Below, one piece after another: positions 9,042 through 63,999 of a DNA stretch of 64,000 bases (position 1 is its first letter; each line of letters starts with the position of its first letter). The position numbers and the translations under genes were made by a program. The notes under the pieces were generated by a model. That model did no database searches, had not been told where the DNA came from, and saw only the letters and a list, made by a program, of their open reading frames with translations. The DNA is taken from IMG/VR virus record IMGVR_UViG_3300030390_002408; one strand, given 5' to 3'. The DNA comes from a virus.

Positions 9042-9087
9042 AACTCTTGATTTTTAAATATTTAATAATTAATAACTCATTTCTCTT

Positions 9088-9126
9088 ACACCGTGAATAT
9101 ACGAATGGTTTCCTGGGGAGCCAAAT
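9088..9126 (-). promoter_or_regulatory. Early promoter (TTTGG-N17-CGTATATT)
   Basis: TTTGGCTCCCCAGGAAACCATTCGTATATTCAC matches the Bacteroidota TTTG...TAnnTTTG spacing. Confidence 0.75.
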
Positions 9127-9127
9127 T

Positions 9128-9337
9128 TTATTGGCGAGGAAGCTGATTTTCTTTTCTCATTTTTTCAAAATCAGGAACTAATTCATCCCCAACCTCACAA
9201 GTCCAATTTTCAGGATCTTCATCTTCAATTCTTTTTGTGAATTGATTAATTTCCTCATCTGTAGCATTTAAATATTTTTTTAAAATACTAATAACAATTT
9301 TTTTGTCTTCTTGAATCATTTTTTCACTTATTGCCAT
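9128..9337 (-). CDS. Hypothetical protein
   Basis: Has its own promoter and an AAAATAAAGGTT-ATG start. Ends QLPRQ. Confidence 0.7.
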   Translation of the reverse strand: MAISEKMIQEDKKIVISILKKYLNATDEEINQFTKRIEDEDPENWTCEVGDELVPDFEKMRKENQLPRQ

Positions 9338-9354
9338 AACCTTTATTTTTGCGC

Positions 9355-9412
9355 TGCTTAATCTTGCAACCTTACCCCATAAATATACAATAGAACCCTC
9401 AGGAAGCCAAAT
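9355..9412 (-). promoter_or_regulatory. Early promoter plus conserved leader
   Basis: TTTGG-N17-TGTATATTTATGGGGTAAGGTTGCAAG. Confidence 0.75.
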
Positions 9413-9413
9413 T

Positions 9414-9890
9414 TTATTGGCGAGGCAGTTGATGTTTCTTCATTTTTTCTAATTTTTCTTTATAGAGTAAGATTTTTAAGTGGAATGAGCATAGTATAAC
9501 TATACTGGTAACCTCTCCTAGAAGAATACTATAAGGGTATAAAAATACCGAAGCCATATATAAAATTTTAAAAATATGGAATCTTTTATTTAAAAATAAA
9601 CTATATAAACATGCAAAATAAAAACATATTGCAAATATGTTATGAGGAATTTGATATTGATACCAATTAAACCCAGTTAATAACATTAAGAAAAAACTAG
9701 GGAGTTTCCATTTCTTTAGAGAAAAGAAAAAGTAGGAGCAAATTATATTTGATACAATAAATAGAGGTTGGAATGGGGTTCCCCAATATTGTGATAAGGA
9801 ACCCATTATTCCATTATTTATTATCATTATGAAAGGAGAAATAACCGCTAAACCTATTGCAGTCAATTTTACATAAAACTCTTTTATCAC
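9414..9890 (-). CDS. Multi-pass membrane protein
   Basis: Several hydrophobic segments. Ends QLPRQ. Confidence 0.6.
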   Translation of the reverse strand: MIKEFYVKLTAIGLAVISPFIMIINNGIMGSLSQYWGTPFQPLFIVSNIICSYFFFSLKKWKLPSFFLMLLTGFNWYQYQIPHNIFAICFYFACLYSLFLNKRFHIFKILYMASVFLYPYSILLGEVTSIVILCSFHLKILLYKEKLEKMKKHQLPRQ

Positions 9891-16761: not shown

Positions 16762-17099
16762 AACCTTAATTTTTATTTATCCATTAAAATGTGAAATTAA
16801 CTCTTTAAATTCATCTAATGTAATTATGTTTTGTTTTACCCACATATAAATCATTTTTAAGTGGTTCCCTCCATTAGATTGTTCTTTTTCTAACCTTTTT
16901 TTATAATCTTCAATTTTGTATTTATCAATCATAACCTTTGTTTTTATTTTTAGTACAAATCTTTTAATGCACTTCTTAGTAATTTCATTATTTGCTTGTC
17001 TCTTTTATTAGTACTACCTGCTAATAATGCCAATGCTTCTTTAATAGCTTCTTCTGCGATTTTTTCTCTTAATTCTTTTTCTTCTTCTTTCATAACCTT
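16713..17099. repeat. 55-bp direct repeat (16713-16767 and 17045-17099)
   Basis: 54/55 identical. Covers the start motif and first 16 codons of two ORFs. Confidence 0.9.
16950..17093 (-). CDS. 47 aa protein (MKEEEKELREKIAEEAI)
   Basis: First gene after promoter 17120-17168. Confidence 0.5.
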   Translation of the reverse strand: MKEEEKELREKIAEEAIKEALALLAGSTNKRDKQIMKLLRSALKDLY

Positions 17100-17119
17100 T
17101 GTTTTTAATGCTCGGCGCT

Positions 17120-17168
17120 CCCTGCAACCTTACCCCTAAATATACGATTAATTTATTGGGGAGCCTAA
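17120..17168 (-). promoter_or_regulatory. Early promoter plus conserved leader
   Basis: TTAGG-N17-CGTATATTTAGGGGTAAGGTTGCAGGG. Confidence 0.75.
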
Positions 17169-17421: not shown

Positions 17422-17937
17422 TTACTTTGTGATCTTAAATGCGGACTCAACCGGTCTTCTATAACCATCAAATCTATAATTACCATTATCTATTAACACA
17501 CCATCCTTAATTACTAGAGCATGCTTATGAACAATAATGAAATAAGTACCACGTGTGAACTTCTGCATGAATGACTTCACCGTATAAGCAACTGCTTTAT
17601 GTGTGTAACTCTCATTCTGAAGCGTACCACCATCTTTTGGTCTATCACCTAAGTGTCTAATATTAAATTTATTCTCCATCACCGGTGCAAATAAATCTAA
17701 TTGACCCTCAGCTTTGAATGTTACCTCATTCATCCCCTTCAATATTGGATTCACATTAAATGTACCTTGTCTATTTTTTCTCTTGAAAACATTCTTAGCA
17801 AACTCATGAGCCGTATTATAACTAATTTCAAATGCATTTGCAAATGCTCTTACAGCACAATCACCTTTTTCACTCGTAGCGATTTCATTGTTTATACTAA
17901 CTCCGTAACCTGCTTTAAATACTTTTTGATCTAACAT
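17422..17937 (-). CDS. Hypothetical protein, possible Cys-His-Asp peptidase-like fold
   Basis: DCAVRA...HALVIKDGVLID. Confidence 0.6.
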   Translation of the reverse strand: MLDQKVFKAGYGVSINNEIATSEKGDCAVRAFANAFEISYNTAHEFAKNVFKRKNRQGTFNVNPILKGMNEVTFKAEGQLDLFAPVMENKFNIRHLGDRPKDGGTLQNESYTHKAVAYTVKSFMQKFTRGTYFIIVHKHALVIKDGVLIDNGNYRFDGYRRPVESAFKITK

Positions 17938-17980
17938 AACCTTTATTTTTAAAATTTATAATTAACAATTGTTGCTTTCC

Positions 17981-18054
17981 TAACCCTGCAACCTTACCCC
18001 GTAAATATACGATCGCTTCCTCGCTAAGCCTACCCTCCCCGCAATTACCTTCAA
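17981..18054 (-). promoter_or_regulatory. Early promoter plus conserved leader
   Basis: TTGAAG...GTAGG-N17-CGTATATTTACGGGGTAAGGTTGCAGGGTTA. Confidence 0.8.
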
Positions 18055-18245: not shown

Positions 18246-19025
18246 TTACTCTGCTGACATTGGCTCTGTGTAAAGGAAACCAACCTTATTCTTTTGATCT
18301 AAACTGAAAAACAATTTATTCATCTCACCACCACGTCTGTTTTTACTAAAGAAAATACATCTACCACCCTCAACAAATTTCATATGTCCCATTCCTGTTA
18401 GCATATGTTTGAATCTATTTGATCCTGCAAACTCACCACCTTTAGTTACTTGTTGGATGATCATGAATGAAGTATTTACACCGCTTGTGTTTTCAGCTTT
18501 GTTATGACGCTCTAAAATGTTTAAAACACGTGACTCAGCGTTTTTATTTGTACCACCATGGAAATCAACAATCGTTGTACAAACTTCAGCCATTGAATCG
18601 ATTAATACAACATCGTAACCTTCAGTTAATGTTGACTCAATTACTTGAATTGGATCATTTTCAATATAATCACCTAAGAATAAAATTGGTAACGCTCCAA
18701 ATTTAGGATATCTTTTAACGTAACCGTATAAATCAATTGAATTCATCTCACCTGAAATGAATAATACTTTAGCACCTTTAGCTTGTAAATCTGCTAGCAC
18801 GTCTAACATTACTGTAGATTTTCCAACTCCTGGATCTCCAACGAATGCATAATTGGTACCTTTCATTAACCCACCTTCACTTGAAAGCATTGAATCTAAT
18901 CTACCACCTGTTTTCATAGGAATAAATAAATTATCATCAAATGATAAATTATCCATTTTTACCAATTTTGGCATTACAAATTCAACTTTCTTACTTGGAC
19001 GACCTCTTTTAACCATATTTTTCAT
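18246..19025 (-). CDS. RadA/Sms-like RecA-family ATPase (ATPase domain only)
   Basis: Walker A GDPGVGKST, ISGE, Walker B VLIDS, QVTKGGEFAG, SKNR. Confidence 0.8.
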   Translation of the reverse strand: MKNMVKRGRPSKKVEFVMPKLVKMDNLSFDDNLFIPMKTGGRLDSMLSSEGGLMKGTNYAFVGDPGVGKSTVMLDVLADLQAKGAKVLFISGEMNSIDLYGYVKRYPKFGALPILFLGDYIENDPIQVIESTLTEGYDVVLIDSMAEVCTTIVDFHGGTNKNAESRVLNILERHNKAENTSGVNTSFMIIQQVTKGGEFAGSNRFKHMLTGMGHMKFVEGGRCIFFSKNRRGGEMNKLFFSLDQKNKVGFLYTEPMSAE

Positions 19026-19056
19026 AACCTTTATTTTTTTAAATTTTTAACCGCTC

Positions 19057-19131
19057 TAACCCCTCATCCCTTACCCCGTAAATATACGATCGCTCCCTAG
19101 GAAAGCCAAATCTTCTGGCAGGCGTCTTCAA
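19057..19131 (-). promoter_or_regulatory. Early promoter plus leader
   Basis: TTGAAG...TTTGG-N17-CGTATATTTACGGGGTAAGG. Confidence 0.8.
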
Positions 19132-19756: not shown

Positions 19757-20047
19757 TTATATCCAATCAGGGGTGGGTTTTCCAAACTCAGGTATTGCTT
19801 CAAAAAAATTATGGAAAAATGGCTCTAATGATGGGCTACCTTCCTCTATCAATAACTGATAAACCCTACCATCAAACTCAAATATTCCCTCCTCTGGGCT
19901 TACCACCTCAATTATTCCTGGAGTCATAACTCTATCTAAATAATCTGTTTCTCCAAAATCTCCTTCATTCAATGAAGTTAATTTAATATCACTTCCTACA
20001 ATTCTCATTTTCATACCTTTTTCAACACTTTTCATAACTTTTTTCAT
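19757..20047 (-). CDS. Hypothetical protein
   Basis: AAAAATAAAGGTT-ATG start, behind tandem promoters. Confidence 0.65.
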   Translation of the reverse strand: MKKVMKSVEKGMKMRIVGSDIKLTSLNEGDFGETDYLDRVMTPGIIEVVSPEEGIFEFDGRVYQLLIEEGSPSLEPFFHNFFEAIPEFGKPTPDWI

Positions 20048-20076
20048 AACCTTTATTTTTTAAATTTTTAATCCGT

Positions 20077-20226
20077 TTAACCCCTCAACCCCAACACCGT
20101 AAATATACGATGAATATCTCGCTTCTCCAAATCTTTCTGCAATTATCTTCAATGAACTTTTTAAACCCGTCTAACCCCTCAACCTTACCCCGTAAATATA
20201 CGGTGAAACCCCCGGGAAGCCACATT
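20077..20226 (-). promoter_or_regulatory. Two tandem early promoters (20077-20152 and 20171-20226)
   Basis: Both carry CGTATATTTACGG followed by GGTTGAGGGGTTA. Confidence 0.75.
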
Positions 20227-24760: not shown

Positions 24761-24831
24761 CCCTGCAACCTTACCCCGTAAATATACGATTGCTTCCTCA
24801 GGAAGCCTAATATTTCCGCGGGAGTCTTCAA
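24761..24831 (-). promoter_or_regulatory. Early promoter plus leader
   Basis: TTGAAG...TTAGG-N17-CGTATATTTACGGGGTAAGGTTGCAGGG. Confidence 0.8.
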
Positions 24832-29849: not shown

Positions 29850-29999
29850 CTAATTTAAATTATTTTTTATTTCAACTAATAAACATTTACCATTTTCACC
29901 AGTAACTAATTTAAAATTAGTTTCAACTTTTGACTCTTCCTTTACTGTTGGGAAATTTTGAATTAAATCTTCAACCCTTATTTTTTTTCTTGCTTTCAT
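29850..29999 (-). CDS. 49 aa protein
   Basis: Start moved to MKARKK, after AAATAAAGGTT and downstream of promoter ~30032-30067. Confidence 0.55.
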   Translation of the reverse strand: MKARKKIRVEDLIQNFPTVKEESKVETNFKLVTGENGKCLLVEIKNNLN

Positions 30000-30122
30000 A
30001 ACCTTTATTTTTAATCGCTCGAACCAATCGAACACCGTGAATATACGAAAGGGAATTGGGGGAGGCACGCTTTTCGTTAGAAAATGTGCCTCTTTTTTTA
30101 ATATAATTTCAATTAATTTGTA

Positions 30123-34810: not shown

Positions 34811-34864
34811 TAACCTTGCAACCTTATTCCTAAATATACGATGGCTCTTTGAGGGAGCCAAATT
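34811..34864 (-). promoter_or_regulatory. Early promoter plus leader
   Basis: TTTGG-N17-CGTATATTTAGGAATAAGGTTGCAAGG. Confidence 0.75.
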
Positions 34865-35206
34865 TTAGAATAGTTTTCTTAAAAGTGAAGGTGAAACATT
34901 AACAATTCCTCTATCACCTTTAACTTTAACATTTTTACTATTAATTTTAATAATTTTAAATTTTTCAGTAGGAAGTACTTTTTTATGAGCAATTTTAACA
35001 GTTTCACCAATAATAAAATCATCTTTACTAAGTTCTTCTTCTCTTTCTCCTTTAAGAGCTGTCATTTTTCCTCTTATTGAAGTTTCATCATATGTTAATG
35101 TTCCTAAATTAATAGTAACTCCATACTTTTCTTCAAGTTCAGCCATTGATGATTGAAAATCTTTTCTAAACTTATCAACTGTTAATTCATTAAATACCTT
35201 TTTCAT
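34865..35206 (-). CDS. Hypothetical protein with C-terminal SH3/KOW-like domain
   Basis: FIIGETVKI...KIIKINSKNVKV...NVSPSLL. Confidence 0.65.
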   Translation of the reverse strand: MKKVFNELTVDKFRKDFQSSMAELEEKYGVTINLGTLTYDETSIRGKMTALKGEREEELSKDDFIIGETVKIAHKKVLPTEKFKIIKINSKNVKVKGDRGIVNVSPSLLRKLF

Positions 35207-35240
35207 AACTTTTATTTTTATTTTTTATAATTTAACTTTC

Positions 35241-35303
35241 CTAACCCTGCAACCTTACCCCGTAAATATACGATGGGGGTCTTACTTCTCCTACCCCCAT
35301 CGC
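35241..35303 (-). promoter_or_regulatory. Early promoter plus leader, with a 10-bp inverted repeat
   Basis: GTAGG-N17-CGTATATTTACGGGGTAAGGTTGCAGGGTTA. Confidence 0.75.
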
Positions 35304-35311
35304 AATTACTT

Positions 35312-35638
35312 TTAAGATTTTTCAAGCAAAGTAACATCACTATATTTTATTTTACCTGAAGTTCTACCACCAAGCATGTCAAATGTATACAACCAAACAC
35401 AAGTTGGGCCAAATTTATCAACATTCATTCCTCTAAACTCACCGTATATTGCAGTTGTATTTGAATCAGCATGTACTTCAAATATTGTTGGAAAATTCCC
35501 CCATTCTCCTACTTTTAAATCAGATTCTGATATATCGAATTCTTCTTTACGTCGGTAAGTATCTTTCAACCCCTCAACTATAAATTTAGTTCCATGAACT
35601 GTTAATGCTTTTTTTACTTCTTTAACCATATTTTTCAT
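35312..35638 (-). CDS. Hypothetical protein
   Basis: Has its own promoter. Confidence 0.7.
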   Translation of the reverse strand: MKNMVKEVKKALTVHGTKFIVEGLKDTYRRKEEFDISESDLKVGEWGNFPTIFEVHADSNTTAIYGEFRGMNVDKFGPTCVWLYTFDMLGGRTSGKIKYSDVTLLEKS

Positions 35639-35659
35639 AACTTTTATTTTTTACGCTGC

Positions 35660-35716
35660 TTAACCCTGCAACCTTACCCCGTAAATATACGATGAAATCC
35701 TCAGGAAGCCAAATTT
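35660..35716 (-). promoter_or_regulatory. Early promoter plus leader
   Basis: TTTGGCTTCCTGAGGATTTCATCGTATATTTACGGGGTAAGGTTGCAGGGTTAA. Confidence 0.8.
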
Positions 35717-35724
35717 TTAGCGCA

Positions 35725-51607: not shown

Positions 51608-51628
51608 AACTTTTATTTTTTGTGTTGC

Positions 51629-51685
51629 TTAACTCCTGCAATCTTACCCCATAAATATACGATGAATTCCTCAGGAAACCACATT
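51629..51685 (-). promoter_or_regulatory. Early promoter plus leader
   Basis: TGTGG-N17-CGTATATTTATGGGGTAAGATTGCAGG. Confidence 0.75.
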
Positions 51686-51699
51686 TCTTACCATATTTC

Positions 51700-62723: not shown

Positions 62724-63518
62724 TTATTTAATGAATGATTTAAATTTATTTATGTTGTATAAGGCTATATCCCAATTTTTAGCATTTCCTTCAAATTTAT
62801 CTACTTTAGTTGATATCTTTTCTTTTAGTCCTCCATCTTCATATTTTATTCCTGCCAAGCCATGTATAACAGGATTTGAAGTGTCTATTGACTCTATAAA
62901 AGGAAATAATTCTTTAGAGTACCAACTAAACTCTTGGGGGACATTACATCCTAGTAAGTGGACTTTATCAGTTGCATTAATAACTCCTTTATTATATAAA
63001 AATCTTATAGTATTATATCTCCCATGAGCTTTAGTTAAGAAAACATTATTTTTATCTGGGGATGATACTAATCCTTCTTGATAATACCAATCAGCTCCAT
63101 AACTAAATGCAATTTTCTTATATCCTTGCATTTTTAAAATAATATAACACTCCCAAGCTTCAATCTTATCATTAGCTTGAACTACTGCTACTGGGGTTGT
63201 ATTTTCAGGATATGATTTTCTTATCCAAGATTTAGCTGAAACTAGTGTTTTTGTTTTTTCTTGCCAATAGTCAGGAACTATAAATTCATTAGGTTTAAAA
63301 TAATCTAACCAATAACTTAAACGATCTAAATCATAGGGTTGTCCTAATTCATGTAAAGAATTATCCATAACAATATAACGTCCTAGTTTTTTAGACTCTT
63401 CAAAGTATTGTTTATAGTCCTCACTTTCATCTAAAAGATGAGGAAGGAGATAACAGTAATCTGTTAACTCTCTTACTTCTCCCATATAAGGAATGGGGGC
63501 TTCATGTGCTACTATCAT
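62724..63518 (-). CDS. TGT/DpdA-like TIM-barrel transglycosylase
   Basis: MDNS, VPD, AVVQ, VHLLG, SIDTS motifs; adjacent to queC. Confidence 0.6.
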   Translation of the reverse strand: MIVAHEAPIPYMGEVRELTDYCYLLPHLLDESEDYKQYFEESKKLGRYIVMDNSLHELGQPYDLDRLSYWLDYFKPNEFIVPDYWQEKTKTLVSAKSWIRKSYPENTTPVAVVQANDKIEAWECYIILKMQGYKKIAFSYGADWYYQEGLVSSPDKNNVFLTKAHGRYNTIRFLYNKGVINATDKVHLLGCNVPQEFSWYSKELFPFIESIDTSNPVIHGLAGIKYEDGGLKEKISTKVDKFEGNAKNWDIALYNINKFKSFIK

Positions 63519-63542
63519 TAACTTATTTTTTTTATATTACGA

Positions 63543-63575
63543 TAAATATAATGCCTTTTAATAGTATATCCAAGT
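63543..63575 (-). promoter_or_regulatory. Promoter of the deazaguanine operon
   Basis: CTTGG-N17-ATTATATTTA. Confidence 0.55.
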
Positions 63576-63645
63576 TTGAAATTTAAATTTTATTAGTTTT
63601 TGGTGGTCTATCTACTTCGATAGAAGCCATGGTAGTGATACTGGT

Positions 63646-63888
63646 GTTGTATGCAATTAAAAAAGACATACAACACGTTATATAGTTAATGCTCGGTTCA
63701 GTTCTGCTATAAAAGTTCTGTAACAACTCGCTTTTGTTTCTAATCTCGCTTCTTTCTCAATATTTAAAGGGCAGTCTTTTAATTCCGTTAATACTGTTTT
63801 TAATCTACGCTCGTAATCTTCCTTTAATTCTTTCATAATATTTTGTTTTTAAATTTTTTCGCACTAACCATATAACCATACGTTAGCA
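63646..63888. repeat. attC-like imperfect inverted-repeat element
   Basis: ATACAAC-ac-GTTATATAGTTAATGC ... GCACTAACCATATAAC-catac-GTTAGCA (arms 14/16), plus a GTTGTATG/CATACAAC pair. Confidence 0.55.
63678..63836 (-). CDS. 52 aa protein inside the inverted repeat
   Basis: MKELKEDYERRLK...ELNRALTI, translated by hand. Confidence 0.55.
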   Translation of the reverse strand: MKELKEDYERRLKTVLTELKDCPLNIEKEARLETKASCYRTFIAELNRALTI

Positions 63889-63999
63889 AACATAAACCCA
63901 ACCATCCTCATCAACAGTTACTCTACATTTGCAGTTTATCCCACGAACACCTTCATCTAATTTAATTTTATGTGATTTATTTCCGTTGTGGAATATAAT
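63883..63999 (-). CDS. 3' end of an ORF running off the window
   Basis: ...GVRGINCKCRVTVDEDGWVYVC; its stop lies within TGCTAAC. Confidence 0.5.
   Translation of the reverse strand: MIFHNGNKSHKIKLDEGVRGINCKCRVTVDEDGWVYVC

Follow-up and report, generated by a model that had tools for sequence, protein, structure and literature searches.

The minus strand at the end of a viral DNA stretch of 64,000 nucleotides (the window) carries an inverted repeat with a small gene between its arms, which raises the question of whether the repeat belongs to a site of recombination, acts as a signal on the transcript or is a chance pairing. The window originates from a marine Flavobacteria-type phage; its closest cultured relatives are Flavobacterium phages, and its gene content includes the 7-deazaguanine pathway and polymerase genes. 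The initial annotation described the repeat as an attC-like element at the end of an integron-like cassette array. At the level of organisation this integron-like idea is largely borne out. We give an even chance to the reading in which the arms are the two end boxes of a single cassette and this cassette belongs to a short array with no integrase, a Bacteroidota variant of integrons of which the phage is a carrier.

The inverted repeat, its ORF and the adjacent hairpin

All elements of the locus are read on the minus strand. ORF64, a 64-aa ORFan with its 3´ part at 63883..63999 and its start past the window end (L001 2839), terminates in TGCTAAC (63882..63888; ORF64 end, 63888-63882), where the stop codon and an AAC core form the junction between the ORF64 and ORF52 cassettes. 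Box B (63860..63881), the 5´ end box of the ORF52 cassette, holds arm 1 of the repeat (GTTATATGGTTAGTGC, 63876-63861) and is connected to the ATG of ORF52 by an A-rich 23-nt leader (63837..63859), which is kept with the ORF in L085-L087 and resembles the leader of the promoter repeats described below. The cargo of the cassette is ORF52 (63678..63836), a 52-aa ORFan. Box A (63677..63692), the 3´ end box, is arm 2 itself (GCATTAACTATATAAC) and includes the ORF52 stop codon. Hairpin H (63644..63676) has a 10-bp stem (GTGTTGTATG at 63676-63667 and CATACAACAC at 63653-63644) and a 13-nt loop, and the last bases of its conserved 29-nt core (63646-63674) are again the AAC core. Neither ORF64 nor ORF52 matches a PHROG family; ORF52 has protein-level homologues in four other contexts (92, 84, 84 and 55% identity).

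The arms (63861-63876 and 63677-63692) constitute a 16-nt inverted repeat with an inter-arm distance of 168 nt and ORF52 enclosed. They are identical at 14 of the 16 positions, and because the two mismatched positions are G.T pairs when read on the gene-sense strand, the RNA stem is paired at 16/16 positions. RNA and DNA folds, both MFE and centroid, pair boxes B and A around ORF52 and place the hairpin directly after them. The sequence features described in the initial annotation, namely TGCTAAC, the arms, the 52-aa ORF and the hairpin, are all present.

The post-array flank that follows the last AAC core (63620..63643) shows a weak likeness to a ACCGTATAAC-type start box, which weakly suggests a start-box-like sequence; a contig of run X10 joins this flank at AAC to non-H sequence. 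At the array end lies a Bacteroidetes-type promoter-like site of a DpdA-like gene (TTG, 20 nt, TATATTTA; 63541..63573), assigned from the consensus only, which has a common core with the promoter repeats. These repeats of ~100 nt, each a promoter plus leader, head at least 13 minus-strand genes and are PeSL-like (PeSLs are compared below), and they form a family separate from the hairpin units. They consist of TTTGG, a small palindrome in the spacer, CGTATATTTAC, a G-rich leader and AAAAATAAAGGTTATG, and are located at window positions 9085-9415, 17082-17153, 17935-18030, 19019-19114, 20038-20226, 24761-24815, 29994-30048, 34811-34866, 35189-35275, 35623-35719 and 51611-51686 and at L001 3153-3248. 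A preQ1-riboswitch-like match inside the DpdA-like gene, by queuosine genes (window 63377-63411; 16 bits, E = 1.6), the only Rfam hit, is at chance level.

L001, a 5.2-kb viral contig, is identical to the window end and extends beyond it. The gene order across the two is a promoter-leader repeat, a 64-aa ORF, a 118-nt spacer ending GTTAGCAAAC, ORF64 ending TGCTAAC, the ORF52 unit ending CATACAAC, the promoter-like site and the DpdA-like gene. The spacer 5´ of ORF64 (L001 2840-2957) is B-X-A-like with a minimal GTTAGCAAAC end and is a possible third unit; it was rejected as a firm B-X-A unit on its MFE fold, which lacks that pairing. As the initial annotation proposed, a short phage cassette array ends at this locus, with at least two, possibly three, AAC-ended units running just past the window end. 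The adjacent sequence, where more such elements and a tyrosine recombinase were to be sought, supplied the rest of ORF64 and the possible third unit, and no integrase or resolvase; none is found among the 49 ORFs of at least 140 aa in the window and L001, in line with the earlier statement that the window lacks an integrase. L097, a relative of the DpdA-like gene, is of no use for comparison because the upstream array is absent there.

Taken by itself, the inverted repeat is not above chance. The window minus strand contains seven ungapped stems of at least 16 bp (Watson-Crick and G.U pairs, loops of up to 300 nt), compared with a mean of six in eight dinucleotide shuffles. The arm motif has no further copy within the window, and the overall fold z-score at the ORF52 repeat is -1.2 for RNA and 0.1 for DNA. 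Hairpin H folds with -13.2 kcal/mol (z = -3.6), and GTTGTATG..CATACAAC is found in no shuffle of the window. The stem count and the fold scores of the repeat would fit a chance inverted repeat beside an ordinary terminator hairpin, with nothing modular about it. However, both arms are homologous to boxes that pair in at least 23 other units, and H is invariant across ~68 contigs. The repeat is accepted as a real feature because of this comparison with other loci, not because of its own statistics; the chance reading is already contradicted by the comparative sequence data, and we rate it as extremely improbable.

A family of invariant hairpins and paired boxes

The pattern GTTGTATG-N13-CATACAAC matches 78 viral contigs, and in ~68 of them the 13-nt loop (and core) is identical within otherwise unrelated sequence. 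Each of five large H-bearing viral records contains one H, as do the 66.5 kb of the window and L001. Among ~185,000 bacterial species genomes H occurs in only 4, all of them Bacteroidota. H as an intrinsic terminator was rejected: it is AT-rich and is followed by ACCAGTATCAC, with no U-tract. H as a double-stranded 11-7-11 recombinase core was also discarded, since related hairpins keep the loop while their stems covary. Such hairpins, with the invariant loop CGTTTTAATG and fully variable, covarying stems, occur in tandem in L086 (3005-3100), L050, L037, L009, L008, L039 and L020, often linked by ACTGTTG and with a T-run after the last one.

A conserved box A is positioned just 5´ of H and a box B often just 3´, and the cassette unit comprises AAC, B, an ORF or a ~70-nt non-coding insert, A, and the 29-nt H ending AAC. 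The equivalent of the window box A is located directly before H in L039 and L046 and before an H variant in L086, and is also present in Polaribacter phage P12002L. The window box B agrees with the post-H sequence of L005 at 20 of 22 positions, is identical in L086/L087 and is similar in L049 and L053. The initial annotation considered it unusual that a gene lies inside the palindrome; the same B/A boxes flank ORFs in L002, L086 and a bacterial locus, so that a gene between the arms is the rule in the family. Its picture of one attC with the gene in its loop is replaced by a different one, in which the arms are the start box B and the end box A of a single cassette and the site-like elements are at the junctions.

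In ~29 loci, H is preceded by a non-coding unit of B, ~70 nt and A with a constant length of 106–113 nt. These ORF-less units contain 19 unrelated inserts, none coding; a coding reading was rejected because the frames from the box B ATG are inconsistent and have early stops. All of them fold with an 18–22 bp B/A stem. Over 23 aligned units the B/A helix is 92.8% paired with fixed G.U at three positions, and it contains 39 double-change cells versus 14 in shuffles, a value reached in 0/500 shuffles. Two box subtypes are separated by compensatory double changes, with GCGG..CCGC and GTGG..CCAC in close homologues. The sense-strand fold is the more stable one in 28/30 units, by a mean of 8 kcal/mol.

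The constant length of these units, their unrelated non-coding inserts and the covariation between close homologues would also be displayed by a scaffolded small-RNA gene family that spreads between phages, in which B/A is the closing stem around a 70-nt variable insert, H is the 3´ hairpin, and the ORF52 unit is a derivative with a gene in place of the RNA insert. We regard such a family as improbable. No Rfam 15 family is matched at gathering or E-value thresholds, even at E = 1, the inserts have no common conserved core, and a search for their antisense targets returned only chance-level short matches. Moreover, the same boxes are also found around ORFs, and the precision of the junctions (see below) would be left unexplained.

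The ORF-less units of ~110 nt, B/A-closed and with GC-richer inserts, are found in L014, L018, L028, L048, L007, L033 and others, and are candidate structured RNAs or empty cassettes. ARAGORN predicts no tRNA at the units. Perfect tRNA T-arm sequences of the GGTTCGAATCC type, which may be tRNA fragments or tRNA-like inserts, are present beside units in L024 (~1760-1800), L049 and L059 (5´ of box A), again with no ARAGORN call.

Junctions, mosaicism and the recombinase

Almost always, AAC stands directly before box B, where it is provided by the end of H or by a short terminus (TGCTAAC, TTTACAAC or GCAAAC). Comparison of the H loci reveals 46 pairs that are alike only upstream of H and 17 that are alike only downstream, with similarity reaching the hairpin, and the contexts assort independently on the two sides of H. 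The piece that such pairs have in common is often exactly one unit: a B-X-A-H unit of ~145 nt recurs in differing contexts, and L028 and L038 contain unrelated cassettes between the AAC of H and a common GCTAAC terminus. Contigs that cross H are possible assembly chimeras at the shared repeat, whereas the TAAC junctions have no such repeat.

ORF64 itself is a discrete cassette. It is common to L090/L091 over 233 nt only, with both flanks unrelated, and is followed by at least five different downstream contexts, each starting within 3 nt of AAC. The break in similarity falls within 1–3 nt of the AAC of TGCTAAC in L090/L091, in L086/L087 and in runs X3, X8, X10 and X15. The ORF52 gene is common to L086/L087 from ACAAC on, and to L085 without box B. 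In run X10, which like run X8 leaves parts of the locus without cover, a 303-nt two-unit block (L001 2642-2944) is retained at 100% identity between two different flanks, with an AAC break on each side. Public marine runs hold three further sequences after the TAAC of ORF64, and the window's own arrangement was found in one run. The initial annotation made its case depend on further copies and on cassette-level variation at GTT boundaries; relatives contain many copies, and cassettes are replaced at AAC/GTT. Metagenome contigs of the locus contain no deletion joints or circles, and no recombination event was observed in them; a metagenome search for the empty site gave a single match, which is a chance hit to a GC-rich bacterial gene.

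The main rival to the cassette reading is RNA punctuation combined with incidental short-homology recombination of the PeSL kind, which we judge somewhat unlikely. B and A would close each small gene or small RNA into a 16–22 bp stem for processing or stability, and H would be a protein-bound 3´ hairpin or an attenuator on a polycistronic transcript; because these signals are conserved between phages, annealing recombinases of the phages themselves would use them as short stretches of homology. The sense-strand-specific fold, the fixed G.U pairs and the covariation are consistent with this proposal, as is the orientation of H, which is that of the neighbouring genes in 52–53 of 66 loci. The window H is located between the last small ORF and the next promoter, the tandem H-type hairpins end in a T-run, and H is present in one RNA-library contig, although RNA contigs cannot reveal transcript ends. 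ERF and PD-(D/E)XK genes are common in H loci, the phages concerned (the window and five records) have no site-specific recombinase, and PeSLs provide a precedent (PMC2839356, PMC4122927). However, many junctions share merely AAC and a few bases, which is too little homology, so that homologous exchange is ill-suited to them. H is single-copy per genome, unlike PeSLs, and has neither a U-tract nor an adjacent promoter. RNA punctuation also leaves unexplained the recombinase-adjacent array and the three CAAC module ends described next.

In a Saprospiraceae genome, at least five units, all AAC-ended, form an array that closes with an ORF cassette bearing B, A and an exact copy of H, and the stop codon of a convergent 370-aa tyrosine recombinase is located ~75 nt past H. 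The best NCBIfam match of this protein is integron integrase (199 bits; cut-off 265), with Xer families next. The recombinase module is present in three copies, all ending in CAAC followed by ATTCGAA, and a family junction lies 1.8 kb from the second copy. Because it is multi-copy, the module may be a separate element for which such sites are only a target. No recombinase is found near H in the other 3 of the 4 H-bearing bacterial genomes. Homologues (E <= 1e-60) occur in 126 of 301 sampled Bacteroidota genomes, a tally at the level of the class in which one genome (G103) is unpublished and supports no specific claim here. After the stop codon of at least 12 of 20 homologues inspected, a variable hairpin is followed by AT|GTT(A/G); these were counted by eye, as an automatic scan for hairpin plus GTT was too permissive. 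In one homologue genome, the AT|GTT(A/G) site is followed by a hairpin whose loop is that of H and whose stem covaries. The bacterial array also includes a 665-nt cassette in three copies, two of them directly tandem (L098 7030-9648; start AACGATTAGG, end GATGTAAC). Many of the IntI/Xer-like recombinase copies (L101-L130) are at contig ends, as expected of repeated or mobile DNA. In the five H-bearing viral records, one of which is complete (CheckV), there is no tyrosine recombinase (PF00589), serine recombinase or Y1 transposase; mechanisms of the IS200/IS605-like or serine recombinase type were rejected, as these records contain no Y1 transposase or resolvase.

On the integron-like reading, a cassette would consist of box B right after the AAC core, a small ORF or a ~70-nt insert, box A and the hairpin ending AAC. 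A, hairpin and B would become contiguous in an excised circle, while in single-stranded DNA, B and A would pair across the insert; either route would yield an attC-sized structure of outer stem, internal loop, inner stem and loop. A host-encoded IntI/Xer-like tyrosine recombinase, whose own gene would be followed by a hairpin and GTT site, may then swap cassettes at the AAC core, the complement of which reads GTT, with the phage as a carrier comparable to a CALIN (defined below). What was observed is the adjacency of such a recombinase gene to H and an array in one genome, and the CAAC end of all three module copies. A more specific version, to which we give slightly less than an even chance, is that Bacteroidota have their own integron analogue. 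Here the primary site (hairpin plus GTT) would be 3´ of the IntI/Xer-like recombinase gene, cassettes would self-close by 16–22 bp end boxes with fixed G.T pairs, and the near-universal 29-nt hairpin would act as the landing site. Lytic marine phages would shuttle integrase-less arrays of small genes and ORF-less structured-RNA cassettes between hosts and phages.

Several observations weigh against the integron-like reading. No recombinase is encoded in the window or the five H-bearing viral records, the recombinase is nearby in one of the four bacterial genomes with H, where its module is multi-copy, and no recombination event, deletion joint or circle was seen. P12002L_attC1, a predicted attC of the same hairpin family, gave no IntI1 recombination in Qi et al. 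A phage genome usually has one H, of invariant sequence, whereas attC is recognised by structure. A function in RNA would account equally well for the sense-strand G.U pairs and the co-orientation with genes. The DNA and RNA readings are compatible with each other, and attC sites are thought to act on transcripts too; by analogy, the same elements probably also act on the transcript, as a stem and a terminator-like hairpin.

If a host recombinase moves these units, lytic phages of a dominant marine phylum would take part in an integron-like gene market without an enzyme of their own. This would provide a mechanism for ORFan turnover in phage accessory regions and would extend integron-type biology to a phylum and a site architecture beyond the classical definition. 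The idea can be tested in culture with Polaribacter phage P12002L: it has a site like that of the window and also a published attC prediction whose hairpin belongs to this family. If only the RNA reading holds, a widespread, structured and uncatalogued element with clear covariation has still been defined.

Comparison with known systems

RNase III processing stems occur between phage T7 early genes and around rRNA. Like them, the boxes form long imperfect duplexes of unit-flanking sequences that are kept within a phage group and are sense-strand-specific; unlike the present units, RNase III stems have no known link to DNA mosaic boundaries or to a recombinase. The pdif modules of Acinetobacter plasmids are bounded by inverted pairs of double-stranded 11-6-11 sites. 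They share with the cassettes the discrete gene modules and, as proposed for the cassettes, short recombination sites and host Xer-type recombinases acting in trans. However, in the related hairpins here it is the stem that varies while the loop stays constant, a pattern that favours a single-stranded hairpin over a pdif-type site.

Of the recombinase-free systems, the nearest analogue is the PeSL, a promoter-early stem-loop found in T4-type phages (Arbiol et al., 2010, PMC2839356; Comeau et al., 2014, PMC4122927). In both systems, conserved intergenic stem-loops around ORFans mark points of modular exchange between related phages, and a dedicated recombinase is not known. A PeSL is made up of a sigma70 promoter and a GC-rich terminator; one genome has many of them, and they recombine by homology. 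In contrast, H has no promoter and is common to unrelated phages, and many junctions share only AAC. The composite promoter-terminator is missing, with no -33/-7 pair next to H and with the promoter repeats forming a separate family, and the copy number differs as well (H occurs once in 66.5 kb and once in each of five large records).

A classical attC site is one imperfect palindrome of ~57–141 nt, located 3´ of the cassette ORF, with R'' = RYYYAAC, R' = GTTRRRY, L boxes and extrahelical bases. The term attC-like holds for the AAC/GTT junctions and the cassette organisation, only partly for the R boxes, and not for the size and IntI of the classical definition. Mismatches to the R-box consensus number two in TGCTAAC, one each in ATATAAC and ATACAAC, one each in GTTATAT and GTTGTAT, and two in GTTAGTG; the AAC and GTT triplets are the part of the boxes that fits. 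The single-palindrome architecture is absent, as the arms are 168 nt apart with an ORF inside and their asymmetry stems from G.T pairs; a contiguous A-H-B site would arise only after circularisation. Nor is there a complete integron, with intI and an adjacent attI and Pc: the window and L001 have no integrase, and the five viral records have no PF00589. Compared with integrons, the complementary ends comprise 16–22 bp instead of 7, the inner hairpin is sequence-invariant including its loop, and the strand bias comes from G.T pairs instead of extrahelical bases. The junction reads AAC on the strand of the genes, the reverse of the orientation in classical cassettes, and the recombinase site is 3´ instead of 5´ of its gene, the product of which scores below the integron-integrase cut-off.

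The phage P12002L connects the units with published predictions. Qi et al. (2023; PMC9892861) reported CALINs, which are clusters of attC sites lacking an integron integrase (PMC9892861; IntegronFinder, PMC4889954), in virulent phages including P12002L. P12002L_attC1, which lies in gene sense with a methyltransferase gene on either side, is a prediction of HattCI only, and no IntI1 recombinants of it were verified (PMC9892861), a further difference from integrons. It starts with TGCTAAC and contains a hairpin with loop CGTTTTAATG, as in the variable-stem hairpins of the H family, which means that a member of this family is already published as a predicted attC. The same phage has window-type B and A boxes separated by an ORF-free stretch of 20 nt (L083 2470-2535; NC_028924 ~32.2 kb), followed by half of H, at 2.2 kb from the published attC1 and overlapped by the annotated reverse-strand gene gp39.

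Integrons are resembled in the promoterless small cassettes arranged in a row, in the AAC/GTT core at every junction, in strand-specific folding and in the IntI/Xer-like tyrosine recombinase beside the array of a bacterial genome; the complementarity between the two ends of a cassette would let an excised circle restore a single folded site. Two to three junction elements fall inside 350 nt of a window that has no integrase, which would be a CALIN-type arrangement if these elements count as attC sites; a likeness to CALINs is seen in the integrase-free phage copies and in the P12002L hairpin of this family that HattCI predicts as an attC.
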